Of a stretch of DNA of 54,692 nucleotides, positions 11,650 to 34,877 are shown in pieces. The notes under the pieces were generated by a model, which saw only the letters and a list, made by a program, of their open reading frames with translations, was not told the origin of the DNA and did not search any database. How positions within the stretch are numbered: position 1 is the stretch's first letter; each line of letters starts with the position of its first letter. The stretch is from Acidobacteriota bacterium (GTDB taxonomy: Bacteria; Acidobacteriota; Terriglobia; UBA7540): contig JARLGN010000439.1 in the NCBI GenBank assembly GCA_031292775.1, forward strand, positions 1 to 54,692, read 5' to 3'. The translations under genes and the position numbers were made by a program.

Positions 11650-13179
11650 ATGGGAAGCCCGATACCAAATGATTTAACGACCGGGGAAGGCATCGTCAGG
11701 TTAAGCGGAATAGGACTCCGCCCGGACGTGGCAGGAGAAGAAAATGGGGCAACCGCAACCCCTGTGGGAGTGGGACGAGCGGAAGCGGCCAGTGTTCGCC
11801 TCATTACCACTGTGATTCAGACGGACTGCCTTGCGGGGCTTGACGGTCTGGAGAAAGGCTCAGTCGCTGCAATCGTTACGTCGCCGCCCTATAATATCGG
11901 GAAACAATATCAGGGGTCTGATGACAACAAAGATGACTATCAAAGCTGGATGCGCTCGGTTTTTGTCGCTTGCAAGCGAGCCTTGGCCGACAACGGGCAC
12001 TTCTTCCTCCAGGTGGGGGGCATTCCAAGCCGCCCCCTAATTCCGTGGGAAGTCATTACGCAAGCCCTCAGCGCCGGGTTTGTCCTGCAGAATCAGATTG
12101 TGTGGGTCAAAAGCGTGGCAATTAGGGAAAAGACTTACGGGCATTTCAAGCCTATAAACAGCAAGCGGTTTATGAACCAGACCCATGAGTTCATCTTCCA
12201 CTTGACCAACAAGGGAGAAACTTCAATCAACCGGCTGGCGGTGGGCGTCCCCTTCACTGACGAATCCAACATCAAGCGATTTGGGCATGAGAATAATCGA
12301 CGGTGCCGGGGGAATACCTGGTTCATCCCCTATGAGACGATAACCTCAAAGAAGAAGGGCTACAACCACCCGGCCGCCTTTCCCGTAGCCTTGCCCGAGA
12401 TGTGCATCAAATTGGCGGGAATCCCCCAAGGTTCTCTGGTTGTGGACCCATACGTCGGCACCGGAACTACGTTGGTAGCCTGCAAAAGACTCCAAATGAA
12501 CGGCATCGGATTTGATATTTCCCCCGAATACTGCAAGATGGCAGAAGAGCGTTTGATCGGTTTAGAACCGGCCACAGAACCAGCGATCCTTGTTGCCACG
12601 CTAACCCGTACCGCCCTCGGCGACACCGCTTCAATGATCCCGCCGAAGCAAGCAACGCCCCAGGCTTTCCTGGCGAACCCCGAAACCGAGATTCGGTTTT
12701 CCGGTTCGCCTTACCTGCGTAGGGTACCACCCACCTTCAGGTACGCCAATACTTGCCCGTGCTTGGAAGACGTCCCACTTGATCTCGGCGACCATCTTGA
12801 CGGCTTCGGGTTGATTTCCATCTTGCGAGAGACCAGATGCGGAGTAGTTGACCCACGGCCGTTCGACGATCAGTGGGCCAGGATCGTCCACAATCTCTGT
12901 GAGGCACGCGGAATACCGTTCAGATATGGACATATGGGGGACCGAGAACGGTTCCCGTCAAAGCTTCTGGGTAGCGTGGAGCGCGAGGACATCCCGGCGT
13001 TCTTTACTGGAACGCAGCCGGAAGGCAGATCGGCCGGACCCTTTCGGTTATCCGGATCGTTCGCTAGCGACATGGGCATGAGAACCTCGTGCCCAGCGGG
13101 TGTCGTATCGCTATTCTCGGAGACGGGGAAGTCCGAGTCCGGGAGTGGGCTGCCGAGGCCTGAGCAGGCGGCAAATTAG
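11650..13179 (+). CDS. DNA methyltransferase 1 (beta-class N4-C/N6-A, PF01555-like) with a long C-terminal extension
   Basis: Motif IV is IVTSPPYNIG. Downstream are HPAAFPVALPE and motif I VVDPYVGTGTTLVA (order IV then I, hence beta class). AGGAGG lies 9 nt upstream of ATG 11650; the ORF-track start 11395 overlaps the B-box. About 190 C-terminal aa are not MTase-like. Confidence 0.8.
   Translation: MGSPIPNDLTTGEGIVRLSGIGLRPDVAGEENGATATPVGVGRAEAASVRLITTVIQTDCLAGLDGLEKGSVAAIVTSPPYNIGKQYQGSDDNKDDYQSWMRSVFVACKRALADNGHFFLQVGGIPSRPLIPWEVITQALSAGFVLQNQIVWVKSVAIREKTYGHFKPINSKRFMNQTHEFIFHLTNKGETSINRLAVGVPFTDESNIKRFGHENNRRCRGNTWFIPYETITSKKKGYNHPAAFPVALPEMCIKLAGIPQGSLVVDPYVGTGTTLVACKRLQMNGIGFDISPEYCKMAEERLIGLEPATEPAILVATLTRTALGDTASMIPPKQATPQAFLANPETEIRFSGSPYLRRVPPTFRYANTCPCLEDVPLDLGDHLDGFGLISILRETRCGVVDPRPFDDQWARIVHNLCEARGIPFRYGHMGDRERFPSKLLGSVEREDIPAFFTGTQPEGRSAGPFRLSGSFASDMGMRTSCPAGVVSLFSETGKSESGSGLPRPEQAAN
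13054..13171. repeat. A-repeat copy 1 (inside the 3' end of methyltransferase 1)
   Basis: ggatcgttcgc..catgggcatgagaacc..gaagtccg..ggcctgagcaggcgg aligns colinearly with 17298-17412, roughly three quarters identical by eye. Confidence 0.6.
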
Positions 13180-13518
13180 TTTCGTCGCCAGTGTGCAGCG
13201 AAAACGGCGCGATCAAGATGGAACCGTTCAACGGTCCGCGGAATAGAGCAAGGGCGAGGCGGTGGCTTGATGGGTACTGAGGACGCTGAACCGCCATCTG
13301 GACTGGGGATGCTCGCCGCAACCGCGTCAAGGCCAGCTTGCGCGGACGCGCTATCGTAACCGGCGCAAGAAGCGGCTGAGAACCGAAGCAAAGTATCTTG
13401 GCTCTTGCGGTTCGGCGCGGAGAGTCGCCGATGCACGGGGGATCTGCGGACTGAAGTATGTCAGCCTCGCCGCCCACCAAAGACAAACCTGAATCAAGCT
13501 GATGACTGGCATCCCGGG

Positions 13519-14652
13519 TCAGCTACCCTCTGCACGATCCGACAAAGGACTCCAGTCCATGAACGGGATCGTTGATATGGTTCCTTTCGCCATTTCCCAG
13601 AGCTTTTCGTCCGGCTCAATACATGTGGCCGCCCAAATCCCCGAGGAACCGGTGAGGACCGGCAGCGCCACCGGAAAGCGGATTGAAAGCGTTGTGGTCG
13701 ACGCACTATCGGGAAACTGGTTCGGCAATTGGCTGAAGAGAGACTCTTCGAGAGATTCTGCAATCCTTTGGCGTGCCATCCCCGCATATTCAGGGTTCAA
13801 CTCCAGCCCAATGAACTGGCGATTATGCTGCACCGCAACTACTCCTGTTGTCCCCGAGCCGCAGAATGGGTCAAGCACGACGTCTCCCGGTCTGCTCCCT
13901 GCCAGGATGCACGGTTCAACCAGCTTCTGCGGGAAGACGGCGAAGTGAGCACCTTTATAATGCTGCACGGCTACGCTCCACACCGTTCGCTTGTTGCGGG
14001 TCTCCGAGATGGAGACAAAACTCTCCTGTCCTGTGCCCTTTTGACCGTTGCGCTTGCCGCCATAGCGGATGCGGCCAGTCCCGGCACGTTTGTCACTTGC
14101 CCATATCGCCGGTTCGGCGACGGCTCCGGAATCATAAAAATATTTTGCACTCTTGGTCAGCAGGAATACCTGTTCGTGGCACCGGGTGGGGCGTGTCTTC
14201 ACTGACTCCGGCATCGGGTTCGGCTTGTACCAGATTATCTCGGAGCGCAGCCACCAGCCGTCCCCACGCAGGGCGAGTGCGAGCTGCCATGGGATGCCCA
14301 CCAACTCTCCCGATTTGCAATTTTCCGGAACTGCCTTCGATGCGTAACTGTCCCCGATGTTCAGCCACAGCGTGCCGTCCGGTCGCAGGACCCTCCGGAC
14401 CTCACGAAACACCTCGACCATCTTTTCGACGTATCCAGTCGGGGTCGCCTCGTGACCGAGTTGGCCGTTGACGCCATAATCACGAAGGTTCCAGTAAGGA
14501 GGCGAAGTAACCACACACTGGACCGAATCTGACAGCATTGCTCCAAGCAGGTGCAGGCAATCCCCGACCCGCACCTCGAAAGTTGCTGCGACGGATTGTG
14601 GGCTGACGATTACCGGAGGGGCACTCCGCTCCAACTTTTGTAATTCCATCAT
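13519..14652 (-). CDS. DNA methyltransferase 2 (beta-class N4-C/N6-A, PF01555-like)
   Basis: Motif strings: VVTSPPYWNLRDYG, IIWYKPNPMPES, HFAVFPQKL and AGSRPGDVVLDPFCGSGTTGV. I prefer ATG 14652 (MMELQK, GGGAG upstream) over the ORF-track start at 14763. Confidence 0.85.
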   Translation of the reverse strand: MMELQKLERSAPPVIVSPQSVAATFEVRVGDCLHLLGAMLSDSVQCVVTSPPYWNLRDYGVNGQLGHEATPTGYVEKMVEVFREVRRVLRPDGTLWLNIGDSYASKAVPENCKSGELVGIPWQLALALRGDGWWLRSEIIWYKPNPMPESVKTRPTRCHEQVFLLTKSAKYFYDSGAVAEPAIWASDKRAGTGRIRYGGKRNGQKGTGQESFVSISETRNKRTVWSVAVQHYKGAHFAVFPQKLVEPCILAGSRPGDVVLDPFCGSGTTGVVAVQHNRQFIGLELNPEYAGMARQRIAESLEESLFSQLPNQFPDSASTTTLSIRFPVALPVLTGSSGIWAATCIEPDEKLWEMAKGTISTIPFMDWSPLSDRAEGS

Positions 14653-14976
14653 GGGCTCCCGAATTGAAATTGTCAGGAAAGACATGCGACTCACCGGGCG
14701 ATTGCGATACCGGCGGCGATGTGAGATAGCCGGGCGCCTGCCTGGAGGTGGTGCGATCAGCACCTGACAATGTTCAATACCGGTTTCTCAAAGAAAAATG
14801 GGTCGGGCGGAGATCCCATTGGCGGTGCAGTGGTGGGGCGGAAGATCGAAACCGGTCATAGACGGAAAACTCAGCGGTCCGAGGTTCCGCTGGTGTGCAT
14901 TCCAGGGCAACGCGGCAAGATCCCAAGATGAGACCGGACACTTATTCCAATGCCGTCACTTTTTGCCAGCTGGCCG

Positions 14977-15041
14977 TTCCCTGGCGCGATGTCCTGATTG
15001 AGATACACTGCCTCAGTTACTTCAATACTCGATTCCGGCAA
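14977..15041. repeat. B-box copy 1, about 600 nt upstream of the 15649 gene
   Basis: The core gagatacactgcctcagttacttcaatactcgattccggcaa (15000-15041) is 41/42 identical to 17590-17631. The left flank ttccctggc.. is also similar. Confidence 0.75.
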
Positions 15042-15648
15042 ATCCCTTTCGGGAATATCCGAGAGCTTTGCAAGTTTTTCGGGCAGCCCAACGGGAACTC
15101 GGGAGCCATGGGCAGGGACCCGACCATCCCTACCCTGGCCAAGCTGCCCCACTTGGCATGGTTCCCACCAAATCAGACTGTCTGGCCAACCACACGGTCG
15201 GGTTTCTTGTTTTCAGTGGTTTGGGTGACTCAGCCCAGCGCCGCGAGCAACCGGACTCCCAAAATCAAGGTCATGGTGCGGACAAGGGCAAACCTTTCCC
15301 GGACTAAGCTACCTGGAGTTGCGCCACCCCCCCCGAGGCCTACTGCCCGACCGATCCGCTCTTCCGGATCTCTCCAGCGCAATGGTGAGCGCTGCATGCC
15401 TGTTGTTCCCATCCTTTGAGATCGGCCCCTTACTTTTCAGTGGCTTATGGAAAGAATAGGAGAGTGCCGATTTTTTTCATTTTCTATGCCGGGCGCGGAG
15501 TATTTATCAGCACGGACTGTGCTCGACCTTCCAGGGTAGGGCACGTGGGATGGCGATCAGCAATGTCCCGCTCTCCCGAACAAGACATTGCGGTTCCAAA
15601 GCAACTGTCCTGTTGCCTTTCCGAACTCGACAACTCAAGGAGAACGCC

Positions 15649-17223
15649 ATGATGGATAAAATTCCTGCATATGACATGCCCGGGCTTCAAACTAGCGCAG
15701 AATCTGCACGAGTTCAGGGCGGATATGAGTCTCTCGATGTAAAGAGCACTAAGATGACCTATGAAGAACTAAATGGGGTCTTGGAAAAGCTCGCCACTAC
15801 TGTTGTTCAGACCCTCGACCAGATGGTTCCCTACTTGGCGAAAATGCAATCGCTGCTGAGCCAGCGTGGTGCGGACAGGAGGAAGGTTCTGCAACAGGCG
15901 GGGCTACCCGGCTGGACGCACTGGGCGAAGGCTTATGCCAGCAAGCTGGACCGCTCCCTGCGAACCATCCAGGACCGCATAAAGCAGTTCCGGGGGCAGC
16001 AGGCAGGCGGGACCACTGGCAAAACCAAAAGCGGCAGCACGGGCGAGCGCCTCAAGCTGGACAGCCGCCAGCAGGCTGCGCTGGTAAAGGCGCAAGTAGC
16101 GGCGAACGACCTCGTCGCCGCATTAAAAAGCGGCGCAGACTGGCAGACGCCACTCGCTGAATACCAGAAGGTCGCCGTCGCTCCGGCAAGGCTGGACACA
16201 TTCATGAATGCGCTTAGCCCGGAACCCGATTGGAAAAGCATCTTGAAGCAATTGGTAGATATGCTGGAGGAATGCGGCGGCGAGTTGCCCGTTCCGGTCA
16301 GGAACGCACTGCGTGCTGCGCAGAAGCTACTCGATGGCAAGGCCGACCAGCAGCAGGTGACTTCCGGAAAAGGGAAGGCTGGTGTCAAAGAGCAGAGCTG
16401 TGGGCAGAAGCCCAGAAACGACAGCACATGCTGCGTCGTCCCCCGGGAAGAAATGCCGAGCGGGGGTGCCCAGAAACTTTCCGTGTTGGTTAGGGGCACA
16501 GCATGTCCGACTGTTCCGGACCCTAAAGTAGAGTGTGGGCACGGAACGTTGGGCGCCGTATCCGTTCAGGGCTCCACTCCGGTGGCAGCAGTAATGGATG
16601 GCACCCCGCCCGAACAGACATCTGCTGAATATCAGAGTCGGAAGGCCGGGCAACAAAAGGAGTCCTGGCCGGGGAAGAAGCATGCCGAGCTAGCGGCCCA
16701 GGCAGCCAAGCCGGCCACCCCCCAGCCTGCCGCAACGCCAGCCCCGGAGCAAGGAACTAAGAAGAAAGCTCGGAAGGCGCCGGAGTCAGTTAAAACCAAA
16801 GTATGTCCTCCTGCCCTTAGCCCTGAGGAGGAAGAGCGCAAACAGGAAACGTCGGTTGCCGCCTCCAATTACCCTGGCCGCAGGCAAGGAGACTTTGTCC
16901 TTAATGAGAACCGCAAATATGAATATGACCCTGAGCTGGAGATGGCTGAAGCCGATGAAATCCAAGAAACCCAGCCCGGCAGTGAGCCGGTGCCTCCCAG
17001 GGAGCCGATGGCGAGCATCGAAAAATCGTATCGGGTGAAGCCCCGTAGCAAACCGGGATTCAAGACGGACTATTTGATTATCTGCGGCGGAGACAAGCAG
17101 CCATACGATGTATTCGACACCGAATGCGAAGCCAAAACGGTCTGCGAGAGTCTGAACAGTGGACTTGTGGGCAACATCGTGTCTCAGCACACTAACGCTC
17201 TATCAGCTGCACAGGCGGCGTAA
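15649..17223 (+). CDS. HTH (DUF3102-like) paralog X1: N-terminal HTH-like module, shared middle module, P/A/K-rich linker, small C-terminal domain
   Basis: AAGGAG lies 6 nt upstream of ATG 15649. LPGWTHWAKAYASKLDRSLRTIQDRI resembles the G.W..W......S.RTA.R signature. The middle 110 aa are homologous to 18279-19757. No enzymatic motif seen. Confidence 0.6.
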   Translation: MMDKIPAYDMPGLQTSAESARVQGGYESLDVKSTKMTYEELNGVLEKLATTVVQTLDQMVPYLAKMQSLLSQRGADRRKVLQQAGLPGWTHWAKAYASKLDRSLRTIQDRIKQFRGQQAGGTTGKTKSGSTGERLKLDSRQQAALVKAQVAANDLVAALKSGADWQTPLAEYQKVAVAPARLDTFMNALSPEPDWKSILKQLVDMLEECGGELPVPVRNALRAAQKLLDGKADQQQVTSGKGKAGVKEQSCGQKPRNDSTCCVVPREEMPSGGAQKLSVLVRGTACPTVPDPKVECGHGTLGAVSVQGSTPVAAVMDGTPPEQTSAEYQSRKAGQQKESWPGKKHAELAAQAAKPATPQPAATPAPEQGTKKKARKAPESVKTKVCPPALSPEEEERKQETSVAASNYPGRRQGDFVLNENRKYEYDPELEMAEADEIQETQPGSEPVPPREPMASIEKSYRVKPRSKPGFKTDYLIICGGDKQPYDVFDTECEAKTVCESLNSGLVGNIVSQHTNALSAAQAA

Positions 17224-17297
17224 TGGACCGCTGCCCCGAAAGTGGGTCAGCGATGGCCCGCCCCTGGCGCAGAGAGTCTGGGCGAACGAAGACACCT

Positions 17298-17412
17298 GGA
17301 TCGTCCGCCGGCAACATGGGCACGAGAACCTGAGGCCCTTGCGGGTTACATCGTTTTTGTCGGAAACGAGGAAGTCCGGGCGCAGGAGGGTGGCCCAGGC
17401 CTGAGCAGGCGG
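17298..17412. repeat. A-repeat copy 2 (intergenic)
   Basis: ggatcgtccgc..catgggcacgagaacc..gaagtccg..ggcctgagcaggcgg aligns colinearly with 13054-13171. Confidence 0.6.
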
Positions 17413-17566
17413 GGGGGATAATTGCTGCTGGGATGTTGCGCAAACGGCTCGGCAGGCAGGAATTGCTCAAAAGCGAGCGGAAGGGGTCAGTGGCACGGCG
17501 GCTGCCGCTTGAGGGGCATTGAGGAAGTCCGAGGGGGATGATCGCAGTATCCAACTTCGCACTGCA

Positions 17567-17631
17567 TTCCCTGGCACAACGCCTCGCCCGAGATACACGG
17601 CCTCAGTTACTTCAATACTCGATTCCGGCAA
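17567..17631. repeat. B-box copy 2, about 650 nt upstream of the 18279 gene
   Basis: gagatacacggcctcagttacttcaatactcgattccggcaa (17590-17631) has one mismatch to copy 1. Confidence 0.75.
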
Positions 17632-18278
17632 GTTCCGCCCAAAAACCTCTTGGGACGCCCACTGAACAAACATGTTGCGCTTGAAGCTGCAAGCAGCCGT
17701 GAGCCCTAATCTCGGTCTTGATGGTCAACATCGTCTGCTCCAGGTCGTCTCTGCCGCAGCAAGGGCATTCGCAAACTTCGGCGAGCCGCCAAGCGCCGGA
17801 GGGGTACCGCTCTTCTTTTTGCTGACCAATACTTCATTCGTTGTGTAAAATTCCACGCGACGTTAGCGTCACCACTTGCGGGTTTCCCCTCGTTCGGCAG
17901 CGTTCGGTCGAACTAGGATCCGAGCATGACATTGGGGATTTCAGCAATGGGGAGGAGCGGCTACTCTTAAAAGGTCCAGGCACGTGAGCCCCCTTCGCTG
18001 GAGTTGTGGGCGTTGATCTGGGCCTTGCCTGGGCGGGATTCGATACCGTGTGGCAAGTTGAAGTGGTGCCACAAATCGCGATGCTCATCGGCGCCTTGGT
18101 GCAGCGGAGCGAATTCCTTCTTTAGGCGAGGGGAGCTCAGTCGGTGCTGCCCGGTCAGCGGCGTAATGGCAGCGGGGGCATTGATGCCGGGATGCGGGGC
18201 GGATCCGAGCCAGGGATCCACCCGAGCCCCGATCGGGGCGATGGTCCTGGACCGGGGTGTCTGGAAAACGGAGGCTGC

Positions 18279-19757
18279 ATGGTCGATACAGCACGGGGGA
18301 GGCCCGGACCCGCGGACCAAGGTCCGGGAGTCGAGATCGCCCGCGACAGCGGAAGGGATCAGTGTGCCCACGCCATGGGCGACGCCGAGCTGTGCGCGTA
18401 CATCGCGGGAGCCCTTTCGCCGGTGAAGAGGATCCTGCGGGACATCCTCCCCTACCTCGCCGAGGCGCGGAGGCGGTTCGCGCAACCGGGGCGGCGGGTC
18501 CCGGTTCCGGGAAGACCGACCTGGGGAGAATGGGTCAGGCAGAGCCTTGGGATCAGCGACCGCCACGCCCGGCGGCTGCTGGCGGAGGTACGCGAGCCGC
18601 AGGGCGGCAGCGGGGATCCAAGACAGGTCAAGCTTGATGGTCACCAGCAAGCTACGCTCGCTAAGGCGCATGTGGCTGCGAACAACCTTGCGACCGCGCT
18701 GAAGAGCGGGGGAGATTGGCACCCAGCGCTGGCAGACTTCGAAATGATCGCCGTCGCCCCGGCGAGGTTGGAAACATACTTGAGCGCCCTGGAGCGCGAG
18801 ACCGATTGGAAGACTGTCCTGGTCAAGCTGGTATTTGCGCTGGAGCAGTGCGGCGACAGGCTGCCGGTCCCGGCCAAGGACGCCGTGAATGCTGCCAAAG
18901 AGGTGTTGGGGGGCAAGGCCGACCAGCAGCAATTGCCTTCCGAAAAACCGAAGGCTACCTGGGCGACAAAATCGCAGGGGCGAACAGCAGACAATAAGGA
19001 GAACACCCCCCCATGCGCTTTCCCCACCATCTCTTATCCTGGTGGCAAAGCACGACTGGCTCCTGCTCTGGTCAGCTTCATGCCTCCGCAAGGACGGTCG
19101 TACGTGGAGCCATTCGCAGGGCGAGGAAATGTCTTCTGGGCTGCCGCCTCCAGCCAACTTGGTTTCCAGCGATGGGCACTGAACGATATCCGCACGGCCC
19201 CCTTCTTCGAGGCCGTGCGGGACATCGGCGACACGATGGAGGTGCCCGTGAAGTCCCGTGAGGAGTACAGCCGGCAGCGGGAAGCCTTCGAGCAGGGTGA
19301 CCCCAAGGCAATCCTGTTGGAGCCATATTTTACGTTCGATGGAGATGGGTATGGACGTGGTTTGCAGGGAAAGAATGGTCCAACATTGGCTGGATACACC
19401 CGCACGCTACGGGTCTGTCATAGGCTGATGCACGCCACGAAGGCGATCATCACAGGTTGCGACTGGACGGAGTTCGACTGGTCATCGCTGACCCTCGACG
19501 ACTTTGTTTTCATCGACCCACCGTACCTCGGCAGTGATGTGCGGTCATATAAGGAAAAGGACCTCAACCATGAAGAGTTGGTTCGTTTTTTACTGGCGGC
19601 CAAGTTTAAGTGGATGTTCACCGAATACGCGCATGAACTATATTTCCGGGAGCTTGGCCAGCCTTTTTTCATAAGGGACATGCAGCTGAACGCCGTCAAC
19701 TTTCACGTGCGCGGGGGCAAGGAACGCCGCTTGGAATGCGTGTGGAAGAACTACTGA
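18279..19757 (+). CDS. Fusion X2: DUF3102-like HTH module, shared middle module and a Dam-type (D12 class) N6-adenine DNA methyltransferase
   Basis: The C-terminal half has YPGGKARLAPALVSFMPPQGRSYVEPFAGRGNVF (motif I) and FVFIDPPYLG (motif IV). The start at 18279 (MVDTA.., GGAGG upstream) is chosen because it aligns with MSDTA.. of the 23591 gene. Confidence 0.8.
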   Translation: MVDTARGRPGPADQGPGVEIARDSGRDQCAHAMGDAELCAYIAGALSPVKRILRDILPYLAEARRRFAQPGRRVPVPGRPTWGEWVRQSLGISDRHARRLLAEVREPQGGSGDPRQVKLDGHQQATLAKAHVAANNLATALKSGGDWHPALADFEMIAVAPARLETYLSALERETDWKTVLVKLVFALEQCGDRLPVPAKDAVNAAKEVLGGKADQQQLPSEKPKATWATKSQGRTADNKENTPPCAFPTISYPGGKARLAPALVSFMPPQGRSYVEPFAGRGNVFWAAASSQLGFQRWALNDIRTAPFFEAVRDIGDTMEVPVKSREEYSRQREAFEQGDPKAILLEPYFTFDGDGYGRGLQGKNGPTLAGYTRTLRVCHRLMHATKAIITGCDWTEFDWSSLTLDDFVFIDPPYLGSDVRSYKEKDLNHEELVRFLLAAKFKWMFTEYAHELYFRELGQPFFIRDMQLNAVNFHVRGGKERRLECVWKNY

Positions 19758-20828: not shown

Positions 20829-21149
20829 ATGAGTTGCCGCCCTGCACTTGCAGGAAATCACTCTGAATTCGCAACACCATCCAAAAAGCGCATAATCCGC
20901 AGCACGAACGAACAATATCTGACAGTCGCAGAAGTTGCACAGATGCTGGACGTCAGCCGGGACACGATACGGCGGATGTTCGCGGAGGAGCCGGGGGTCG
21001 TCAACGTCGGGGCGCAGAGGAGGCACGCCAGCCGACCCTACCGGATTCTGCGGATTCCCCGAAGCGTGCTCGAACGGGTTCTGGCTGCCCGTGCAGTCAA
21101 GGGCATCACGAGCGCTCAAAACGACGGAGAACTGAAGCAGAGCGAGTAA
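20829..21149 (+). CDS. Helix-turn-helix DNA-binding protein (excisionase/AlpA-like)
   Basis: YLTVAEVAQMLDVSRDTIRRMFAEEPGVV...YRILRIPRSVLERVL is a typical MerR/excisionase-type HTH. The gene is divergent from the 250-aa gene. Confidence 0.65.
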   Translation: MSCRPALAGNHSEFATPSKKRIIRSTNEQYLTVAEVAQMLDVSRDTIRRMFAEEPGVVNVGAQRRHASRPYRILRIPRSVLERVLAARAVKGITSAQNDGELKQSE

Positions 21150-21183
21150 GGTCAGGGGCTGGAAAGACTAAAGGAGATTCGGC

Positions 21184-26816: not shown

Positions 26817-26972
26817 ACCTAGCTCGACGGCAGCGTGGGTGGGGGCTCAAGGAGCAAGCCCAAGCCCGAAACGCCCTGCAAGGGGCGTAGCTGGTTGAAG
26901 ACCAGCCTGACGAGGGCAACCTGACGTATACCGACGCAGGCAACAAGTCGGCAGCAAGTAAAGGAGAAGGCC

Positions 26973-28058
26973 ATGACCAAACGCCAAGCAGGGAAGCTTA
27001 TGCCCCACGAACTGCCACACGAGTCGCCCTATAGACGCCTGCCCCACGGCCCTGATATCCCATCGCTGCCCGCCACGACGCCCGCGATGCGGCAACAGTC
27101 CGTGGAGCGGCACGGCGAAAACCAGCCGTATTTCGACGTCTCACGCCAACAGTGGTTTGTGAATCGCCCTGGCGAGCGCCAGGTGTTTTTTAACGACGGC
27201 GACATTTGCGTGTGGGCTGTCCAGCGGCACGGGGACTTGCGGGTCGACTTCAGGGCGGTGGTGCGGCTTGATACCACTGACACCGAAAATCCTGACACGC
27301 CGCTGTCACGGGAGGAATTCCTCGCCAAGTATCCCCTCCATCAGAGCCTCATTGACTTTCCTGATGCCAACCCTAGGACGAGGGCGATGTGTCGGTGTTT
27401 TGCAAACAATTATCACGCCCACGAAAAAGAGTACTTGACACTCTCAGCCGTGGAAAAAATCAGAATCCTTAACCCACCCGAAGAGGGAGAAATGGCATCT
27501 GTCAAGGTTGAAGAGCTCTCCGACAGACAGCGGATTGGCATCGGCATTTCCAACGAGGAAAAGGAGGTCGTCGTGCCTGAGAAGTTACCAAAATTGAGCT
27601 TCACGAGCGCAATCCAAGGAGCAAGTGCAGTCCGGGGAAAACTCATCGAGGATACTGGCGAAAACAAGGAGAGTATCGTGGCGAACTTTGCCTACGACGA
27701 TAACGACGCTTTCTCCGTGCGCCTGCGCATTGACGATAGCTTGAGCCTTGAAAGCATTCAGCCAGGCTATGAGATTCTCGCTCAAAAGGTCAAGGAAAGG
27801 TCGGACCTACTTTTCTTTATGCAGAAGCTTCGCCGTTCAATTTGGTTTCTTCGGAGTGGCGATTCAAGAATTGACCCCTCTGCCTTTGACGATGGGCATG
27901 AAGAAGAACGAGAGAAAAAATGGCGCAAGGAGTTTGAGGAATCCCGGAAAAAGAAGTTTCCCGAGATGTCACCCGAACCTGCCGGTACACCGACACTTCA
28001 TGGTCGTAAGATTGAGAATGGTCCCGAGGATAAAGACTCTGTTGTGGCGGTTCTCTGA
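26973..28058 (+). CDS. Hypothetical protein with an acidic/charged C-terminal third
   Basis: AAGGAG lies 6 nt upstream of the ATG. 361 aa with no recognised motif. Confidence 0.6.
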   Translation: MTKRQAGKLMPHELPHESPYRRLPHGPDIPSLPATTPAMRQQSVERHGENQPYFDVSRQQWFVNRPGERQVFFNDGDICVWAVQRHGDLRVDFRAVVRLDTTDTENPDTPLSREEFLAKYPLHQSLIDFPDANPRTRAMCRCFANNYHAHEKEYLTLSAVEKIRILNPPEEGEMASVKVEELSDRQRIGIGISNEEKEVVVPEKLPKLSFTSAIQGASAVRGKLIEDTGENKESIVANFAYDDNDAFSVRLRIDDSLSLESIQPGYEILAQKVKERSDLLFFMQKLRRSIWFLRSGDSRIDPSAFDDGHEEEREKKWRKEFEESRKKKFPEMSPEPAGTPTLHGRKIENGPEDKDSVVAVL

Positions 28059-28322
28059 CACGATGGTCCTGACCGGTGTCGGTGAGACTGCGCATGGACG
28101 ATACCTTGGGCGAGGAAAGAAGACGCAGCCGAAGTTCGAGTTGTGGGGGGGGCAGTTATATCAAGGCACACCCGCGGGAAAGCTATCGGGAAGTCGGCAG
28201 GACGGTGCGCATCCAGGTGTGGAAGGCTGTGGTGATCGCCTGAAATCAGGGCATTCGGAGGATCCGCGGACATCCGGGCGCCTACGTCCGCAAGCCCAAA
28301 AACCACAACGAGGCGAAATGAC

Positions 28323-28655
28323 ATGGACGAGAGGACGGAAGGAACAGTCAGCATTCCGATGCCGGCGCCGGGGTTCGCCCCATACATGAACGCCCCCTTC
28401 AACTCCGCGGAGATGGTGCGGGCCAAGGAGTCGGAAGAGGGAGACGGCACGGAAGGGACGGGGCAGATTCAGCGGGAGAAACCTGATGCCCTGGGGGCAG
28501 CCGCCAACCCACCGCCAAAAAGGAAAGATGTGAACGACTACACCGACCAGGACTTCCATCAGCTGCAAAAGACACGCCTGCGTTTCGCCGTCCGTCTGGC
28601 CGGGCAAGGCTTCCATTTTGCCCCCGCAGGCTGGGCTGTACGCACGGGGAGATAG
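28323..28655 (+). CDS. N-terminal piece of the Prim-Pol domain, out of frame with the downstream ORF (probable frameshift fragment)
   Basis: It ends ...RLRFAVRLAGQGFHFAPAG, matching the first strand-loop (aL.yA..G..vfP) of bifunctional primase/polymerase domains. The stop at 28653 is 9 nt before the next ORF, which is in the -1 frame. Confidence 0.5.
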   Translation: MDERTEGTVSIPMPAPGFAPYMNAPFNSAEMVRAKESEEGDGTEGTGQIQREKPDALGAAANPPPKRKDVNDYTDQDFHQLQKTRLRFAVRLAGQGFHFAPAGWAVRTGR

Positions 28656-28663
28656 GCTGGCCC

Positions 28664-30859
28664 ATGGATGCCACTACGGACCGGGAACGGATCAAGGCGT
28701 GGGTGAATGCCGGCAAGCAGCTCGTGATGGTGGCCAAGTTCGGGAAAGGCGCCGTGCTGGATTTCGATAATTTCGAGGCGTGCAAGGCGCTGGGGTTCGA
28801 CGAGCAGTGGCTCCAGGGAATGCTCAGGGTGGACACGCCTTCCGGCCCCGGCCATTTCCATTGCTACCTGCCCTGGAGCGCAGCCCTGGATGCCTTCCCC
28901 AATGGCGCCGCGAATGCGGATGCGTTTGACGCCAGTGGGAACCTGGTCGGCGAACTGAAGCTCAACAACTCGACCGTCGCCGCCCCCGGCAGCCTTAGAT
29001 TCAACTCGGAGTGTCCAGGCAAAGTGGAGGGAGCCTATATTCCCGTCACAGACCAAAATGCGGAGCTTTGCCCCAACGCCCCGGCAGTTGCCGCGTGGTT
29101 CAGGGCCCACGGCAAGGCCACCAAGCCTAAGCCGGAATTCACGGGCCGCAAAGAGCCGTGGAAGTTCCACCCCGAGTTTGATCAAGACGAGTTTCTTAAT
29201 CACAACCTATGCTCGGGACTCGACGGCGAAGGGGAAGGTTGGATAGAGGACGGCGTCTATCACCTTGTCCCGGACGAATGCCCATTGTGCGGGCAAGAGG
29301 CAAGACAAAATACCACCCTGGCGGCGGCCGTCACCAAGTTCATCTTCTCCGGCACGTGCTATGGATTCATCTGCCACCACTGCGGGGTGAATTCCAGGGC
29401 AGACTTCGAAGGAAAGATGGCGGAGGACCACCTAGATTGGGAGCCTTGGCATGGTTACATCTATCGGCACGACAGCGATACGCTCCTGTTTGCCGACGCC
29501 GCAAGGGCGGGCTTGGAGGTGGAGATGGTGGGCTGCTCAGATCACGATGAAACCTCTGCTGGCACGACGACATGCCCAGAGCAACCTGCGGAGCAACGCT
29601 CGCCAGTTATACATGAGGAGAAGCCCGCCAGGCTCCGGTTGGCAGAGATGCCCGAATCCGCCATGTATGGCTGGATTGCAGACAAGGCGAGGGAACTCCA
29701 GGTCCCGCTGGGGTTCGCCTATGCTGCGACACTCACGGCCTTTGCTCCCTGCATTACCACCTTCCCCCGCCAGATTCGCCCCACCCTTTACACCGCGCTG
29801 ATCGGGCCCGTCCACTGCGGCAAGACGGAGACGCTTAAGAGGGTGCGTGCAAGCATTCAATACCCCGACCCCGAGACGGTCAAGACCACGGTTCCCGGGT
29901 CCGACCGCGGGCTCATCAATATCTTCGGCGGCAAGAAGAAGGACAAGAAAGACGAGGCCTTTGGACTGGAAGTCCCAAAGACCAGGCTGCTGGTTCAGGA
30001 CGAGCTTCGCAATACCTTTGCCAAGGCCATGATCCAGGGGAGTAGTCTCCCCAGCACGCTGTGCACCCTGTTTTCGGAAGACGAGGCCGGGACCGCGGAC
30101 AAGACGGGGGAACACATAGCACTGGTCAGGCTCAGCATCCTCGGCGCATTGAAGGCCGAAGATGCCGATGACTTCGCAGAAGTGTTCGGGAAAGGGGCAA
30201 CGTCCGGCCTGTATGACCGCTTTGTGTTCGCCGTCGGGAGCAAGGGATGGCAATACTTCGACTGGGCGCCGCCAGCCGAGCCTTCATTCTGTTGCCCCTC
30301 CCGGCCCGAAATTCCCGCCACGGTCTTTCAGATGCTGGTTGCGTGGGGAGCGCACAATACCGACCGTCATCGGCTGGGGGAGATAGCCTTCCGGGTCGCC
30401 TACATCTCGGCGGCGGCAAATCAAGACAAATTCATTAGCGAAGCATGCATGGCTGCTGCATTGGAGTTTGCCGAATGGCAGGAGGCTATCCGGGGAAGGT
30501 ATAAGCCGGGATTGGGGGAAGGCGACAGGGCCCGGGCAACGGCAGCCATACTCAATGTTCTGGAGGCGGTCCAGGGCAAATGGATCCAGTGGCGTGAGGT
30601 GGCTACCAAAAAAAACTGGTACCGCAAGTTTGGGGCTGCGGTCATAAGCCAGGCCCGGGACTCATTAGCACGGTCAGGAATGACGGTCGAGGAGACTGAG
30701 GAAAGCGAGAACGGCAGGCAGCGCCGGACGGGCGCGTGCGCTTGCGCACGGCAGAAGATGAGGCTTAGGCCCAGTTGTCACTTTTGGGCCAGTTGTCAGT
30801 CCAGTTGTCACTTGGTTGTCAAAGAAAATAAAGGAGTTAAGTCAGTAGTCATGGTATGA
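28664..30859 (+). CDS. Primase-helicase: Prim-Pol domain plus a DUF3987/P-loop (phage/plasmid primase P4-type) domain
   Basis: Prim-Pol strings: DATTDRERIKAW, AVLDFD, VDTPSGPGHFHCYL and NSTVAAPGS. P-loop: Walker A LIGPVHCGKTE and Walker B-like LLVQDEL. The last 40 codons read through a DNA repeat array, so the real end may be earlier. Confidence 0.8.
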   Translation: MDATTDRERIKAWVNAGKQLVMVAKFGKGAVLDFDNFEACKALGFDEQWLQGMLRVDTPSGPGHFHCYLPWSAALDAFPNGAANADAFDASGNLVGELKLNNSTVAAPGSLRFNSECPGKVEGAYIPVTDQNAELCPNAPAVAAWFRAHGKATKPKPEFTGRKEPWKFHPEFDQDEFLNHNLCSGLDGEGEGWIEDGVYHLVPDECPLCGQEARQNTTLAAAVTKFIFSGTCYGFICHHCGVNSRADFEGKMAEDHLDWEPWHGYIYRHDSDTLLFADAARAGLEVEMVGCSDHDETSAGTTTCPEQPAEQRSPVIHEEKPARLRLAEMPESAMYGWIADKARELQVPLGFAYAATLTAFAPCITTFPRQIRPTLYTALIGPVHCGKTETLKRVRASIQYPDPETVKTTVPGSDRGLINIFGGKKKDKKDEAFGLEVPKTRLLVQDELRNTFAKAMIQGSSLPSTLCTLFSEDEAGTADKTGEHIALVRLSILGALKAEDADDFAEVFGKGATSGLYDRFVFAVGSKGWQYFDWAPPAEPSFCCPSRPEIPATVFQMLVAWGAHNTDRHRLGEIAFRVAYISAAANQDKFISEACMAAALEFAEWQEAIRGRYKPGLGEGDRARATAAILNVLEAVQGKWIQWREVATKKNWYRKFGAAVISQARDSLARSGMTVEETEESENGRQRRTGACACARQKMRLRPSCHFWASCQSSCHLVVKENKGVKSVVMV

Positions 30860-30980
30860 GGATGAGAGAGAGAAGATTAATCTTCTTGCCCTACCCTCCC
30901 TATCCGGGACTATTGACTAACAGCCTTTGTTATCTTTGACAACGGGGCTGACAACTGGATGAAAACAGAACCGACAACAG
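30771..30980. repeat. Candidate origin or protein-binding region: four direct CCAGTTGTCA boxes, an AT-rich spacer, and three inverted TGACAAC boxes
   Basis: Direct boxes lie at 30771, 30789 and 30801 (perfect 10-mers) and 30814 (ggttgtca). Inverted boxes lie at 30936-43, 30948-58 (ctgacaactgg, exact complement) and 30972-78. The spacer 30821-30935 is visibly AT-richer than its surroundings. Confidence 0.6.
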
Positions 30981-31282: not shown

Positions 31283-32419
31283 TCAACCTAAGGCTGCCTT
31301 CCTCTTGGCGTTCGCTTTCCTCTCCTCAATCTCCTCCGTCTTCTGGTAGTAGAATGGGTCTGCGCAAGACGGCGGCAAAGCCGCCTCTTTGTTCACTTCC
31401 CTTTCCGCCTTCATGGTCCGAATTACTGGTTCGCTTCCTGGTTCACTTATTGATTCCACTTTCATTATCTCAGTCATCCGGGATGACTGGGGCAGTCCGC
31501 CCGAGTGACTGGGGCAGTCATCCCAGAATACTACCCAGTCATCTGGGGTAACTGGGGCAGTCAGCCGGGCTGACTGGGGCAGTGACGTGGGCTGACTGGG
31601 GCAGTCATCCGGAGTGACTAGGTAGTCAGCCGGGATGACTGGCGGAGCCTTTCTCTTGGGCCTGGGGTCTGGCTTCACAAGGTGAGATACATCGAGGTCG
31701 TCCCGATGGAACACCAGGCAGCGACCCGCCTGCCAAGCCATCGACATGACCCCGTCATCCTGCTTCTTGGCATCCATAAACCTAAACTCGGGACCCAGAC
31801 CGTTCTTCAGCAGATTCACGTCTTCGGGATTGTCCAGGTCGAACAAGTCGAACAACCGCCGCCGCTCGGCGGGAAACTCCACCTTGGTGGATTGGACCGG
31901 GGCATTCAGTTCCCGTCTCCATCGTGCCCTGTCGTCCGGGTCGAACATGACGAAGTCTGGGTCGCACCAGCCGATTTCAAACAGCCGGGGCCTCCAGACC
32001 GGGTACCAGGGAGGTGTGGCCTGGGGTTTGTCGAGCGGGACATACTCATCATTTGGGCCGTAGCACCATCCGATGAAGGCGTCCGCTTTCTTGATGTCCC
32101 TCCTGGCATTGGTATACAAGACCGTCTCGGTGTTGCGCAGAAGGTATTCGTTTGAGGCTGCCGCACCCGAAGGCAGGAACCTGTGGGTGATTTTCATGAA
32201 TCCCAAAAGTTCCAGCAAGTCCAGGGCGTTGGATATGGAATCCCGGGATTTCAATTGCGCATGCGCCGAGATGTCCTCATAGGAGGGATGGCATCTCCCC
32301 GTTTCGGAGTGTGCCCGTGCGGCGAGTGCCATCGCCACCGACTTGAGCGTTATGGCATCGACCTTGCCTCCTTCGGGGAAGCTCGTGTTGAAGACCGCCA
32401 TCATGTGATTGAAGCCCAT
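31283..32419 (-). CDS. Winged-helix replication-initiator-like protein (Rep-like)
   Basis: The N-terminus has LKSVAMALAARAHSETGRCHPSYEDISAHAQLKSRDSISNALDLLELLGFMKI, typical of the wHTH of plasmid/phage replication or DnaD-like initiators. Its start abuts the upstream stop (TAGATG). The 3' third contains the iteron array. Confidence 0.6.
   Translation of the reverse strand: MGFNHMMAVFNTSFPEGGKVDAITLKSVAMALAARAHSETGRCHPSYEDISAHAQLKSRDSISNALDLLELLGFMKITHRFLPSGAAASNEYLLRNTETVLYTNARRDIKKADAFIGWCYGPNDEYVPLDKPQATPPWYPVWRPRLFEIGWCDPDFVMFDPDDRARWRRELNAPVQSTKVEFPAERRRLFDLFDLDNPEDVNLLKNGLGPEFRFMDAKKQDDGVMSMAWQAGRCLVFHRDDLDVSHLVKPDPRPKRKAPPVIPADYLVTPDDCPSQPTSLPQSARLTAPVTPDDWVVFWDDCPSHSGGLPQSSRMTEIMKVESISEPGSEPVIRTMKAEREVNKEAALPPSCADPFYYQKTEEIEERKANAKRKAALG
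31484..31649. repeat. Eight iterons phased at 21-22 bp, each a dyad TGACTGgggCAGTCA
   Basis: Units start at 31484, 31506, 31527 (degenerate), 31549, 31571, 31593, 31615 and 31636. The core tgactggggcagtc is perfect in 3 units and near-perfect in the others. Confidence 0.8.
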
Positions 32420-32635
32420 CTACTTGACCCTCCAGACCCTGGTTCCTTCCGGCAGGCTGCGGCAGGTGAACTTCTTCCCGTACTTCTTCTGCCTCCAAAA
32501 AACGGAATTGGCGATTTTGTGTATGTTGACGTTCTTGAATAGAATGCTGTCCCCAACCTCCATCCGGTCCAGTTCGGCATACTTTTGGCTCCGGGTGCGG
32601 GGGACGGGGACTCCTTGCTCGATTTTCTGTTCCAT
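32420..32635 (-). CDS. Small conserved phage/plasmid-type protein, translationally coupled to the Rep-like gene
   Basis: AGGAGG lies 6 nt upstream of the ATG. KYAELDRMEVGDSILF...KKYGKKFTCRSLPEGTRVWRV resembles a small family I recall as KYPF..M.VGDSF...G.KF..R....G.RVWR. Confidence 0.6.
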   Translation of the reverse strand: MEQKIEQGVPVPRTRSQKYAELDRMEVGDSILFKNVNIHKIANSVFWRQKKYGKKFTCRSLPEGTRVWRVK

Positions 32636-32830
32636 TGTGTTTCCTCCTGTTTAGGCTCTTCGTAGACAAGATTTTCAATTACTGGCACGATCGCCGCGAT
32701 CCCGGCGATTGGCGGCGTCATGCACTGAAACTCGACAACAAAAAATGTGGGCGCTACCGGCCTCTTTAAATGGGAGCAATTTGGTGAGGCAATTTCTGCT
32801 CCCCGGTTCAAAATCTGAGGAGGCACAAAC

Positions 32831-33433
32831 ATGGAAGACACCGTTGCGGAGAACACGAGCACCGGGTTTGCCTTAGCAATATCGCCAGGGCCTGAGGACG
32901 AGCAGAGGCTCGCCGACGAAATTCAGCAGTTGTGGGCGGTTCACATTGAGGCCAAGACCACCGTCAAAAGGACCCGGGAGGCAATGAAGGCCATTCGCCA
33001 GCGACTCGGCGAGCGGTTGTATGAGATGAAACTGTTGCTGGTGAAGCCGGGACGCAACGGGGGCTGGTCTTATTTCCTGCGGTTGCAGGGAATCGCCAAG
33101 GCGACCGCCGACCGACTTGTCCGGGCGCACGAAAAACCCATTGGCCCGAATCCGAATGTGCTCAGTGACCAGGTTTCCGAACCCAGCAGGGAAGAGGTGG
33201 GTCTGTTCATTGATGCGCTTTGGCCCAAGCTGGAACAGAAGCTCCCCACTCCCCGGTCTGCTTACTATTTCCTCTGGTGGTTTATTGGGTACTCAGGCCT
33301 CCCCTACGAGATGCGAGAAAATGGGATTTTGGTAATCAACCCGGCGGCTGCGTCGTCCTGCACCGCAGCCACGCCCACGGAGGCAGGGCACACCGCTGCC
33401 GCTGCCGTTGCGACCGATGGCGATGTGGTGTAG
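32831..33433 (+). CDS. DUF3102-like HTH protein (stand-alone paralog)
   Basis: GAGGAGG lies 7 nt upstream of the ATG. LADEIQQLW...LLLVKPGRNGGWSYFLRLQGIAKATADRLVRAHE matches the G.W..wL......S.rTA.R.m signature. Confidence 0.65.
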   Translation: MEDTVAENTSTGFALAISPGPEDEQRLADEIQQLWAVHIEAKTTVKRTREAMKAIRQRLGERLYEMKLLLVKPGRNGGWSYFLRLQGIAKATADRLVRAHEKPIGPNPNVLSDQVSEPSREEVGLFIDALWPKLEQKLPTPRSAYYFLWWFIGYSGLPYEMRENGILVINPAAASSCTAATPTEAGHTAAAAVATDGDVV

Positions 33434-33457
33434 CCAGGAGGGAAGGGGAATCAGCAA

Positions 33458-33679
33458 ATGACGGGCAGAAGTCGACGACCCCAAAAGTCAATGAGGACCG
33501 CCGTGGAGATGGCAATCGGCAGCTTGGACAGCCATCCTAGCCCCAATCCCCTGGACATGGACATGAGTGATATCGGCGAATCTCCTACCGACCTCGACCT
33601 GCCCCTGCCGGGTAAGCTGGAGAGCCGGCACGCCGCCGAGACAGGGGCGGCTCGTGGCGGGACCAAGAGGCGGTCCTAG
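33458..33679 (+). CDS. Possible small acidic protein
   Basis: 73-aa ORF with a purine-rich stretch upstream. Pro/Asp-rich, no motif. Weak call. Confidence 0.25.
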   Translation: MTGRSRRPQKSMRTAVEMAIGSLDSHPSPNPLDMDMSDIGESPTDLDLPLPGKLESRHAAETGAARGGTKRRS

Positions 33680-33926
33680 CGACAGGGATAACGCCCGCCG
33701 CTCATTCCCTGAATCTCGCAAAGGGAGCCGATTTCAGCCATGCCTCCAGTGGGTCTATGGTTCTGGTGCCGCAGACTGGTGCAGAAGGTTCCACGAGATT
33801 ATTGACCACCTTTGCGGGGCTATTTGGATGACGGTCTGATTCTGCGGCTGAGCCCGGGAGTCGTCCCGGGCAGTGGAGTGCTTTAGCTTGAGTGATTTTC
33901 TCGCCAGCCTTGTGGGTGCCGGCAGC

Positions 33927-34877
33927 ATGGAGATGATGCATGCTGCCCTTGGTAGGACCGCCCTGACCATTTGCCAGGGAGACTCCAGGGAACTTGGCTG
34001 GATTGCGCCGGCATCAGTCCACTTGGTCCTGACCTCACCTCCCTACTGGACGCTCAAGGAATATCCCCGCCGCGAAGGCCAGCTTGGACTCGTCGAGGAC
34101 TATGACGCCTTCCACAATGAACTCGACAAGGTGTGGAAGCACTGCTTTCGTGTTTTGGTTTCCGGCGGCCGGCTCGTGTGCGTCGTCGGGGACGTCTGCC
34201 TGTCCCGCCGCAAGCATGGCAGGCATTCGGTCATGCCCGTGCACGCCGACATCATTGTGAGGGCCAGGAAGATTGGCTTCGACAACCTCACTCCCATTCT
34301 GTGGCACAAGATAACCAATGCGAGTTATGAGGTCGAGAACGGGTCCGGCTTCCTGGGAAAGCCCTACGAGCCCAACGCCATCATCAAGAACGACGTTGAG
34401 TTCATCCTGATGCTGCGGAAGCCAGGCGGGTATCGCCAGCCCACCGAGGAGCAGCGCGAAGCGTCCAGGCTTTCAAAGCAAGAGCACCAAGAGTGGTTCC
34501 GGCAGGTATGGAACGGCCCCAACGGAGAGTCCACAAGGCACCATCCGGCGCCGTTCCCGGAGGAGCTGGCGCATCGCCTCGTGAGGATGTTCTCCTTCGC
34601 CGCCGATACCGTCCTTGACCCCTTCATGGGCACGGGGACGACTATGCTGGCTTCCGCCCGCTGCGGCCGAAACGCTATTGGGGTGGAGATCGAGCCGGCT
34701 TACGTCATGATGTCGAAGGAAAGAATCGAGAGGGAGCTTGCGACACTCTTCCGGCCAGCAAAGGGCATGGCCATTCCACAGACATCAGCATGTGGAGGGA
34801 CTGCCTCGTTGCCCGAGCCCAATGCGGCGGCAGCTGTCCTCCCTATGACCGTTCTTGGCCTCGAACTCACAGCATAA
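33927..34877 (+). CDS. DNA methyltransferase 5 (beta-class N4-C/N6-A, PF01555-like)
   Basis: Motif strings: LVLTSPPYWTLKEY, HHPAPFPEELAHRL and VLDPFMGTGTTMLA. I prefer the ATG at 33927 (MEMMHAALGRTALTICQGD). Confidence 0.85.
   Translation: MEMMHAALGRTALTICQGDSRELGWIAPASVHLVLTSPPYWTLKEYPRREGQLGLVEDYDAFHNELDKVWKHCFRVLVSGGRLVCVVGDVCLSRRKHGRHSVMPVHADIIVRARKIGFDNLTPILWHKITNASYEVENGSGFLGKPYEPNAIIKNDVEFILMLRKPGGYRQPTEEQREASRLSKQEHQEWFRQVWNGPNGESTRHHPAPFPEELAHRLVRMFSFAADTVLDPFMGTGTTMLASARCGRNAIGVEIEPAYVMMSKERIERELATLFRPAKGMAIPQTSACGGTASLPEPNAAAAVLPMTVLGLELTA

Follow-up and report, generated by a model that had tools for sequence, protein, structure and literature searches.

The window analyzed here is the whole of contig JARLGN010000439.1 (54,692 nt) from an Acidobacteriota genome assembly, GCA_031292775.1. 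Between ~9,700 and ~34,900–36,000, it contains an island of ~25 kb that adjoins a tRNA-Leu gene and carries five genes for DNA methyltransferases (MTases), namely, MT1 to MT4 and a Dam-like gene, together with predicted genes for integration and replication (Table 1). Open reading frames (ORFs) were mapped and scored by codon usage, and protein families were assigned by scans with Pfam, PHROGs, NCBIfam, and PADLOC. A preliminary description of this stretch had proposed a mobile element with four β-class SPPY enzymes and one Dam-type DPPY enzyme, all retaining motifs I and IV, and with no recognizable endonuclease partner. All five genes were found where they had been placed; four gave PF01555 matches of 143–175 bits (gathering cut-off, 26.7 bits) and one a PF02086 match of 41.9 bits (gathering cut-off, 22 bits), and their catalytic residues are undisrupted. 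The MTase genes account for 7.4 kb, or 29%, of the island.

Table 1 Features of the island and its right flank in the window
Feature	Position	Strand	Evidence and remarks
tRNA-Leu(UAA)	9610–9698	−	ARAGORN; Rfam RF00005, 58.6 bits; left island junction at its 5′ end
Tyrosine integrase	9717–10856	−	PF00589, E = 1e-16; Int_N; 48% identity to the L005 integrase
Putative AlpA/Xis-like small DNA-binding protein	10903–11160	−	phrog_66 "excisionase and transcriptional regulator", E = 6e-5; phrog_7338, E = 8e-7
~75-nt motif, copy 1	11400–11475	+	Upstream of MT1
MT1, β-class SPPY MTase	11650–13179 (ORF from 11395)	+	PF01555, E = 1e-45, 156.9 bits; PADLOC MTase_II, E = 9e-76
MT2, β-class SPPY MTase	13519–14763	−	PF01555, E = 3e-51, 175.0 bits; PADLOC MTase_II, E = 5e-102
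~75-nt motif, copy 2	14977–15046	+	Upstream of unk557; crossover point in L015
unk557: N-terminal helical module (15550–16400), low-complexity linker, C-terminal domain, no MTase domain	15550–17223	+	No family match
~75-nt motif, copy 3	17567–17636	+	Upstream of the Dam-like gene; conserved in L014 and L015
Dam-like: helical module (aa 1 to ~245; 18279–19028) and α-class D12 MTase	18279–19757 (ORF from 18144)	+	PF02086, E = 1e-10
unk250, convergent with the Dam-like gene, 116-nt gap	19874–20626	−	No family match
Second putative HTH/Xis-like protein	20829–21149	+	phrog_66, E = 6e-6; several HTH DNA-binding PHROGs
Three ORFs of 89, 240 (unk240), and 289 aa (unk289)	21184–23351	+	No family match
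MT3: helical module (aa 1 to ~230; 23591–24300), linker, β-class SPPY MTase	23591–25720	+	PF01555, E = 1e-47, 163.4 bits; phrog_67, E = 2e-64
ORFans unk251, unk361, and a 110-aa ORF, upstream of the primase	26061–28655	+	No family match
PrimPol with DUF3987-type helicase (predicted replicative primase-helicase)	28664–30859	+	PF09250, E = 1e-4; DUF3987, E = 8e-4
Rep-like initiator (HTH_36) with internal iterons	31283–32419	−	PF13730, E = 7e-7; replication-initiator PHROGs
Small ORFs: 71 aa (−), unk200 (+), 73 aa (+)	32420–33679		71-aa ORF matches phrog_37142
MT4, β-class SPPY MTase, right end of the element	33873 or 33927–34877	+	PF01555, E = 1e-41, 143.5 bits
Four ADOP-family duplicated permeases, an RND adaptor gene, and a TolC-like gene	40566–52998		Right flank; ADOPs, TIGR03434, 769–962 bits (cut-off, 622)

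MT1 to MT4 display the β-class order, in which motif IV is N-terminal to the (F/Y)xGxG motif I, and both motifs are intact in each enzyme: TSPPY at residue 78 and YVGTG at residue 268 in MT1, SPPY at 87 and FCGSG at 300 in MT2, SPPY at 307 and FGGSG at 615 in MT3, and SPPY at 55 and FMGTG at 251 in MT4. In the Dam-like enzyme, FAGRG at residue 279 precedes (I)DPPY at residue 413, which is the α-class order. The four β-class enzymes are only 25–43% identical in pairwise comparisons (43% between MT2 and the catalytic domain of MT3), so that different specificities are plausible. The best PDB match of MT1 was 8s9m, a cytosine-N4 MTase (E = 1e-19), and MT4 is closely related to Thermus TTHA0409 (PDB 2zie, E = 1.6e-111), which is itself uncharacterized. 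SPPY is motif IV of the N4-cytosine enzyme N4CMT, and the adenine enzyme CcrM has DPPY (PMC10406627); the four SPPY enzymes probably form N4-methylcytosine (m4C), and the α-class D12 enzyme is predicted to form N6-methyladenine. The Dam-like enzyme matched PF02086 over profile positions 1–52 only, and phrog_56 ("DNA methyltransferase") over residues 296–537 (E = 3e-24). Because its score against TIGR00571 (dam) was 51.2 bits, below the cut-off of 114.85, the earlier label "Dam-type" stands for the D12 class, as given by PF02086, phrog_56, and DPPY, but not for Dam proper, and GATC specificity cannot be assumed; the best PDB match had an E-value of 0.0078. Two of the β-class enzymes have further segments. 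MT3 contains a Cys/His-rich insert (CNRGDH...CFCQRCGAW; 24560–24790, residues ~325–395) after motif IV that is absent from MT2 and may be a zinc ribbon. MT1 ends in an extension of ~200 residues (12580–13179) with a weak, sub-threshold match (E = 4e-4) to the C-terminal third of DUF5131, the phage Gp37/Gp68 family. MT1 also has the lowest codon-usage score among the island genes, and its region the lowest GC content (52.7%).

The left end of the island could be placed to the nucleotide. Contigs of related strains (L065–L068) share 95.7% nucleotide identity with the window from an amino acid permease gene to exactly position 9699 and diverge beyond it, and the junction thus coincides with the 5′ end of the tRNA-Leu gene instead of the usual 3′ end. 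The stop codon of the integrase gene lies 18 nt from this end, on the same strand as the tRNA gene (9699–9717), and the integrase gave generic, weak matches to XerC/D models. The right end lies between 34,878 and 36,047 and is only approximate because no attachment (att) sites were found; nor can it be set by an empty-site comparison, because the related-strain contigs share with the window only blocks of 1.8 kb (permease and tRNA at 95.7% identity; aldehyde dehydrogenase at 91%). Inside these limits, the 3′ part of the Rep-like gene contains ~8 repeats of 22 nt (31471–31670), each of them palindromic (CAGTCAnCCGGGnTGACTGGGG). These iterons appear to form an origin of the iteron type that lies inside the initiator gene; in lambda, the origin likewise sits within the initiator gene O. 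We also noted an inverted repeat of 36 nt (30815–30850 and 30908–30943; 81% complementary, 57-nt spacer), which extends from the end of the primase-helicase gene into the intergenic region before the Rep-like gene.

Relatives of the island hold the same backbone in as little as ~5 kb. The minimal ones (L003 and L004) consist of an integrase gene, two small ORFs, and a primase gene; in L005 the integrase is accompanied by a primase 55% identical to that of the island; and L002 has the island's gene order of primase, 73-aa ORF, and MT4, with an MT4 homolog of 82% identity and, directly upstream of it, a counterpart of the 73-aa ORF of 55% identity. The backbone is thus small, and the accessory genes of the island occupy ~18 kb between the Xis-like gene and the primase gene. 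The PrimPol-helicase has 51 homologs, several of which are annotated as P4-type primase/helicase and which are found in small elements with an integrase and a primase; when it was used as the query to look for DNA closely related to the island as a whole, zero viral contigs and a single genome contig of 3.4 kb were returned. The relatives bearing homologs come from peat and soil metagenomes, and the host is assigned to the Acidobacteriota because of the four ADOP permeases in the flank and because "Candidatus Sulfotelmatobacter" is named for one homolog. The integrase beside tRNA-Leu, the Xis-like gene, the Rep-like gene with its iterons, and the PrimPol-helicase agree with the mobile element proposed earlier, and by its gene content the region would be a single integrative, autonomously replicating element beside tRNA-Leu in an Acidobacteriota chromosome.

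The absence of a recognizable partner was also upheld. When the ~15 island ORFs that do not encode MTases were scanned against the four libraries, matches to nucleases, restriction-type helicases, specificity subunits, and defense proteins other than MTases were all lacking, even when Pfam matches with E ≤ 10 were included; unk251 gave one sub-threshold PADLOC match to Cas8e (E = 8e-4). The MTases themselves matched only the MTase_II and oMTase models of PADLOC, plus one MTase_III model among the weak matches of MT3. A Type II restriction-modification (R-M) system was rejected, as the neighbors showed no match to a restriction endonuclease (REase) family in these libraries, and Type I/III R-M, BREX, and DISARM were rejected, as no specificity subunit, helicase/nuclease subunit, PglZ, or DrmA/B was found by the MTases.

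The number of MTase genes was compared with that in 37 IMG/VR viral loci of 5–21 kb, each containing a homolog of MT2 or MT4, using an identical phmmer screen. One MTase ORF was found in 33 of the 37 contigs and two in the remaining 4, versus five in the window. MTase genes as such are widespread in this setting: MT2 has relatives in 14 IMG/VR contigs (36–50% identity), the MTase families phrog_67 and phrog_56 are common in viral contigs, and a gut-phage survey covering 22,673 phages counted 3,921 MTases over 3,543 genomes with R-M genes, approximately 1.1 per genome (PMC10711547). The ratio of nonsynonymous to synonymous substitution rates (dN/dS) against metagenome relatives was 0.19–0.39 for the Dam-like gene and 0.17 for MT4 (against L002); both genes are under purifying selection. 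The observed/expected ratios of the palindromes GATC, GGCC, and CGCG were 0.60–0.64 in the island (9717–34877) versus 0.82–0.86 in the flanks, a stronger depletion of the kind that exposure to Type II restriction is expected to produce.

The Dam-like enzyme, MT3, and unk557 have a helical module in common at their N termini. The Dam-like enzyme and MT3 are 60% identical over their first 108 residues (72% at the DNA level over 300 nt), and the N terminus of the Dam-like enzyme is 37% identical to unk557 over 279 residues. The core of the module reads ...L..N.AY.REAR.RFAQPGRRVP..G.PT..WI..NLGISDRHVRRLLA, or in an alternative rendering ...REAR.RFAQPGRRVP..G.PT..WI..NLGISDRHVRRLL..., and it had no match in Pfam, PHROGs, or NCBIfam. 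An alignment-based AlphaFold2 (AF2) model was all-helical, with a predicted local distance difference test (pLDDT) score of 62 overall and 74–87 over residues 21–100; it had no fold match in PDB or BFVD at E ≤ 0.001. The model contains a pair of helices resembling a helix-turn-helix (HTH), at residues 82–90 and 94–102, and the module probably binds DNA. By eye, unk289 shows a module-like pattern (W/F, then an "S..W..R" helix), and it has a homolog of 27% identity in L006/L007, three ORFs away from a stand-alone module gene.

Outside the window, the module was seen in L044 (2490–4043) and across L038–L063. Its family has few members (256 cluster representatives among 1.84 billion proteins at E ≤ 1e-3), and most of them are stand-alone proteins of ~270 residues encoded near integrase, resolvase, or polymerase genes. 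At ~20 of 53 metagenome loci, the module forms the C terminus of a complete C5 MTase, and among the 36 long representatives there were fusions to C5 MTase (5), Mom (1), and 2OG-FeII_Oxy_2, a 2OG-Fe(II) oxygenase (1). The Dam-like fusion recurs in L013 (78% amino acid identity) and L014/L015 (95%), and L011/L012 join an MT3-type module to an unk557-type C-terminal domain. The module, ~100–250 residues in length, is thus N-terminal to the Dam-like and β-class MTases and C-terminal to C5 MTases. These recurring fusions and the stand-alone contexts indicate a mobile-element domain that has repeatedly been joined to DNA-modifying enzymes.

A motif of ~75 nt (TTCCCTGGCAC...GAGATACAC.GCC.CAGTTACTTCAATACTCGATTCCGGCAA) is present as three direct copies, upstream of three of the island genes, where 0.02 matches are expected by chance. 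Copies 2 and 3 are 83% identical, whereas the proteins encoded after them (unk557 and the Dam-like enzyme) are only 37% identical. The related locus L014 (91% nucleotide identity, motif at ~300–380) is arranged as in the window. In L015, the sequence left of the motif corresponds to 14830–15041 of the window and that to the right to 17589–18917 (motif region, 263–474 of L015); because the context switches exactly at the motif, L015 lacks the 2.6-kb unk557 cassette. The motif is a recombination junction for the gain or loss of cassettes, and the MTase set could plausibly have been put together in this way. Such exchange may amount to no more than homologous recombination between promoter regions that are repeated. 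As in integrons and phage "linker sequence" platforms, direct intergenic repeats bracket cassettes, and L015 differs by exactly one of them; unlike integrons, the island has no IntI-type signature and no attC-like imperfect palindrome or conserved hairpin at the motif copies, and an integron was rejected. A structured element (Frpo-like single-strand promoter or RNA) was likewise rejected, as there was no conserved hairpin and no Rfam match; folding z-scores ranged from −2.2 to +1.2, and the structures differed between copies. A sigma-54 promoter was rejected on inspection by eye, which found TGGCAC but not GC at the −12 spacing. The ~1 kb upstream of the Dam-like gene (17224–18278) contains no convincing ORF but is ~91% conserved in L014, as well as the coding sequence next to it; a long leader, a gene for an RNA, or the remains of a decayed gene would each be possible.

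Because the locus is a mobile element with five MTases and no detectable nuclease, specificity, or defense partner, self-protection by orphan MTases is the best reading of it, and we think it likely, with some reserve, that the island is an anti-restriction arsenal of several orphan MTases, carried by an integrative replicon of Acidobacteriota. A small backbone (integrase, Xis/AlpA-like protein, PrimPol-helicase, and Rep with iterons) would have been expanded by accessory cassettes, including the five solitary MTases, which were probably assembled stepwise by recombination at the ~75-nt intergenic sequence. During replication or exit from the cell, the DNA of the element would become methylated at several unrelated motifs, and the methylated element would survive Type II-like restriction in the next host, a "Trojan horse" use of orphan MTases. 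The module on two of the MTases and on unk557 probably binds either control regions of the element (autoregulation) or the element itself (targeting), and such binding would limit methylation in time or space. By analogy with known systems, we infer that the MTases methylate five different specificities and that the element can pass many R-M systems, as the preliminary description had suggested; the enzymatic activities, the target bases and motifs, and the role of the module are likewise predictions.

Several points weigh against this interpretation. Continuing avoidance of short palindromes would be less necessary if methylation fully protected the island. The assignment of SPPY enzymes to N4-cytosine is a tendency rather than a certainty, and no recognition specificity is readable from the five MTase sequences. 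No att repeat was detected: exact-word and blastn-short comparisons of 9460–9760 with 11000–40000 found no shared word of at least 11 nt, and the right flank compared with the tRNA region in the same way gave nothing above chance. Between 9.7 and 35 kb, no Pfam or PHROG match to virion, packaging, conjugation, or mobilization genes was found, which leaves the element without a visible means of transfer or packaging. Finally, eight ORFs could be given no function (unk557, unk250, unk240, unk289, unk251, unk361, unk200, and the 110-aa ORF), and some of them could be novel nucleases.

This last point leads to the alternative already raised in the preliminary description, that the island is a hidden R-M or defense cluster in which unk250, unk251, unk361, unk240, or unk557 is an endonuclease and the MTases are modification halves carried as addiction or defense cargo. 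REases are notoriously undetectable by sequence; unk250 (250 aa) and unk251 (251 aa) have sizes typical of Type II REases and lie 116 and 340 nt, respectively, from an MTase gene; and a concatenated query of the four ORFans unk250, unk251, unk361, and unk240 found no homolog at E ≤ 1e-3 among 5.8 billion proteins, while PDB sequence searches with unk557 and unk361 were empty. The sole homolog of unk250 that was found (L044, 44% identity) lies between an integrase gene and a C5-MTase–module fusion and so adjoins an MTase gene as well, but the neighbor there is a C5 MTase and here an N6-adenine D12 MTase, and a cognate REase is not expected with both. A hidden Markov model (HMM) built from the two known unk250 sequences detected no further copy in 64 loci, and an unk250-like gene is absent from ~20 other loci with module-fused MTases. 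A single-sequence AF2 model of unk250 was all-helical without a β-sheet core, at a pLDDT of 43.6, which is low confidence and too poor for a fold search. Around module genes at 16 metagenome loci, ~12 of them with a complete C5-MTase–module fusion, HTH_36 proteins (5) and integrases (3) recurred among the 96 neighboring ORFs, but no nuclease family did. MT1 and MT2 converge directly on each other, with nothing in between, and MT4 has only the 73-aa ORF upstream and noncoding sequence downstream. Since neither the scans of the four libraries, nor the model and distribution of unk250, nor the survey of neighbors revealed a partner, the R-M reading is weakened, and we regard it as unlikely.

Epigenetic control is another possible use of these enzymes. 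Phage P1 Dam acts in packaging, and CcrM and Dam act in chromosome control; the island MTases might similarly mark the origin or regulatory regions of the element, or the host chromosome, and thereby time replication or excision or reprogram host expression. The HTH-like module could tether two of the MTases to control DNA, the candidates being the Rep iterons and the 75-nt motifs, and there are precedents both for regulatory roles of phage orphan MTases (PMC12707154) and for transcriptional regulation by the N-terminal HTH of M.SsoII-type enzymes (PMC3978073, PMC2760811). However, five divergent enzymes far exceed the needs of any known regulatory circuit, MT1, MT2, and MT4 have no module, and relatives with the same backbone replicate with zero or one MTase; the cassette-like gain and loss also fits accessory cargo rather than core regulation, and control of this kind seems improbable to us. 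That the MTases accumulated passively, as hitch-hiking cassettes at recombination-prone junctions with little current function, some of them silent or decaying, is harder still to accept. Cassettes do differ between close relatives, and the MT4 homolog of L002 (5073–5807) is shortened to 184 residues and has lost its S-adenosylmethionine (SAM)-binding half, from which it follows that MTase cargo also decays in this element family; the codon-usage score of MT1 and its extension resembling a DUF5131 fragment would fit such a history as well. By contrast, the five reading frames are open with catalytic and SAM-binding motifs intact, dN/dS is well below 1 in both testable genes, and 7.4 kb of dead cargo would be costly on a 25-kb element, so that we give passive accumulation little credence.

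Orphan MTases with an anti-restriction role include M.EcoGII, M.BceJIII, and the multispecific MTases of Bacillus phages. The island resembles such systems in having MTases of Type II-like β and α classes on a mobile element with no adjacent REase, but known cases involve one promiscuous or multispecific enzyme or one to two genes, whereas the island has five divergent genes that make up 29% of it. Protection of element DNA by solitary phage and plasmid MTases is itself documented, as "The Trojan Horse defense" (PMC12707154), and M.EcoGIX, which is coupled to PolI, protects pESBL on entry (PMC7736820). What is new here is the presence of five divergent MTases on a 25-kb element, together with a cassette junction and a fusion module not described before.

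Fusions of MTases to DNA-binding domains are known from the SsoII type (PMC3978073, PMC2760811) and from the ParB-MTases of phages and plasmids (PMC12704722). M.SsoII, M.Ecl18kI, and ParB-MTase share with the island enzymes a noncatalytic, probably DNA-binding domain fused to an MTase on mobile DNA, and ParB, like the module, also occurs alone and fused to other enzymes. The module nevertheless has no detectable sequence or fold similarity to these domains (no Pfam, PDB, or BFVD match), and a ParB-MTase fusion was rejected for want of a ParB/Srx (PF02195) match. In SsoII-type enzymes the HTH binds an operator in the promoter of their own R-M system; the island has an HTH-like helix pair, a 75-nt motif upstream of three genes, and no R gene. 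A bolder proposal, which we put forward as doubtful, is that the module is a new adaptor that couples C5, β-class, and Dam-like MTases, Mom, and a 2OG oxygenase to the DNA or replisome of the element, so that modification takes place in cis, and that the ~75-nt motif is an exchange site for anti-restriction cassettes. On mobile DNA, the module links five or more classes of DNA-modifying enzymes, and targeting of the element would explain how many MTases can be carried without disturbing host epigenetics; the coupling of M.EcoGIX to PolI offers a parallel (PMC7736820).

As a mobile element, the island resembles P4-like and phage-inducible chromosomal island (PICI)-like satellites and integrated plasmids in its tRNA-adjacent integrase, AlpA/Xis-like protein, primase-helicase, initiator with iterons, and lack of virion genes. 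It differs in abutting the 5′ end of the tRNA gene and in that no att repeat was found, and because no capsid-redirection, packaging, or mobilization genes are detectable, membership in a satellite family cannot be claimed. A complete prophage was rejected, since 9.7–35 kb gave no PHROG or Pfam match to structural genes (terminase, portal, capsid, and tail).

Acidobacteriota are among the most abundant soil bacteria, and to our knowledge, their mobile elements and barriers to gene flow are almost unknown. An element that devotes nearly a third of its DNA to five MTases would imply that restriction in these communities is both strong and diverse. Its enzymes are candidates for five new specificities, several of them probably m4C, and the cassette junction suggests how anti-restriction arsenals can be assembled. 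Beyond MT4, before the aldehyde dehydrogenase gene, lies an ORF for an ICMT/PEMT-like membrane methyltransferase (35273–36070) with a TTG start and a low codon score; because three related contigs lack it beside their orthologous aldehyde dehydrogenase gene, it may belong to the cargo of the island or be a variable gene in its own right.

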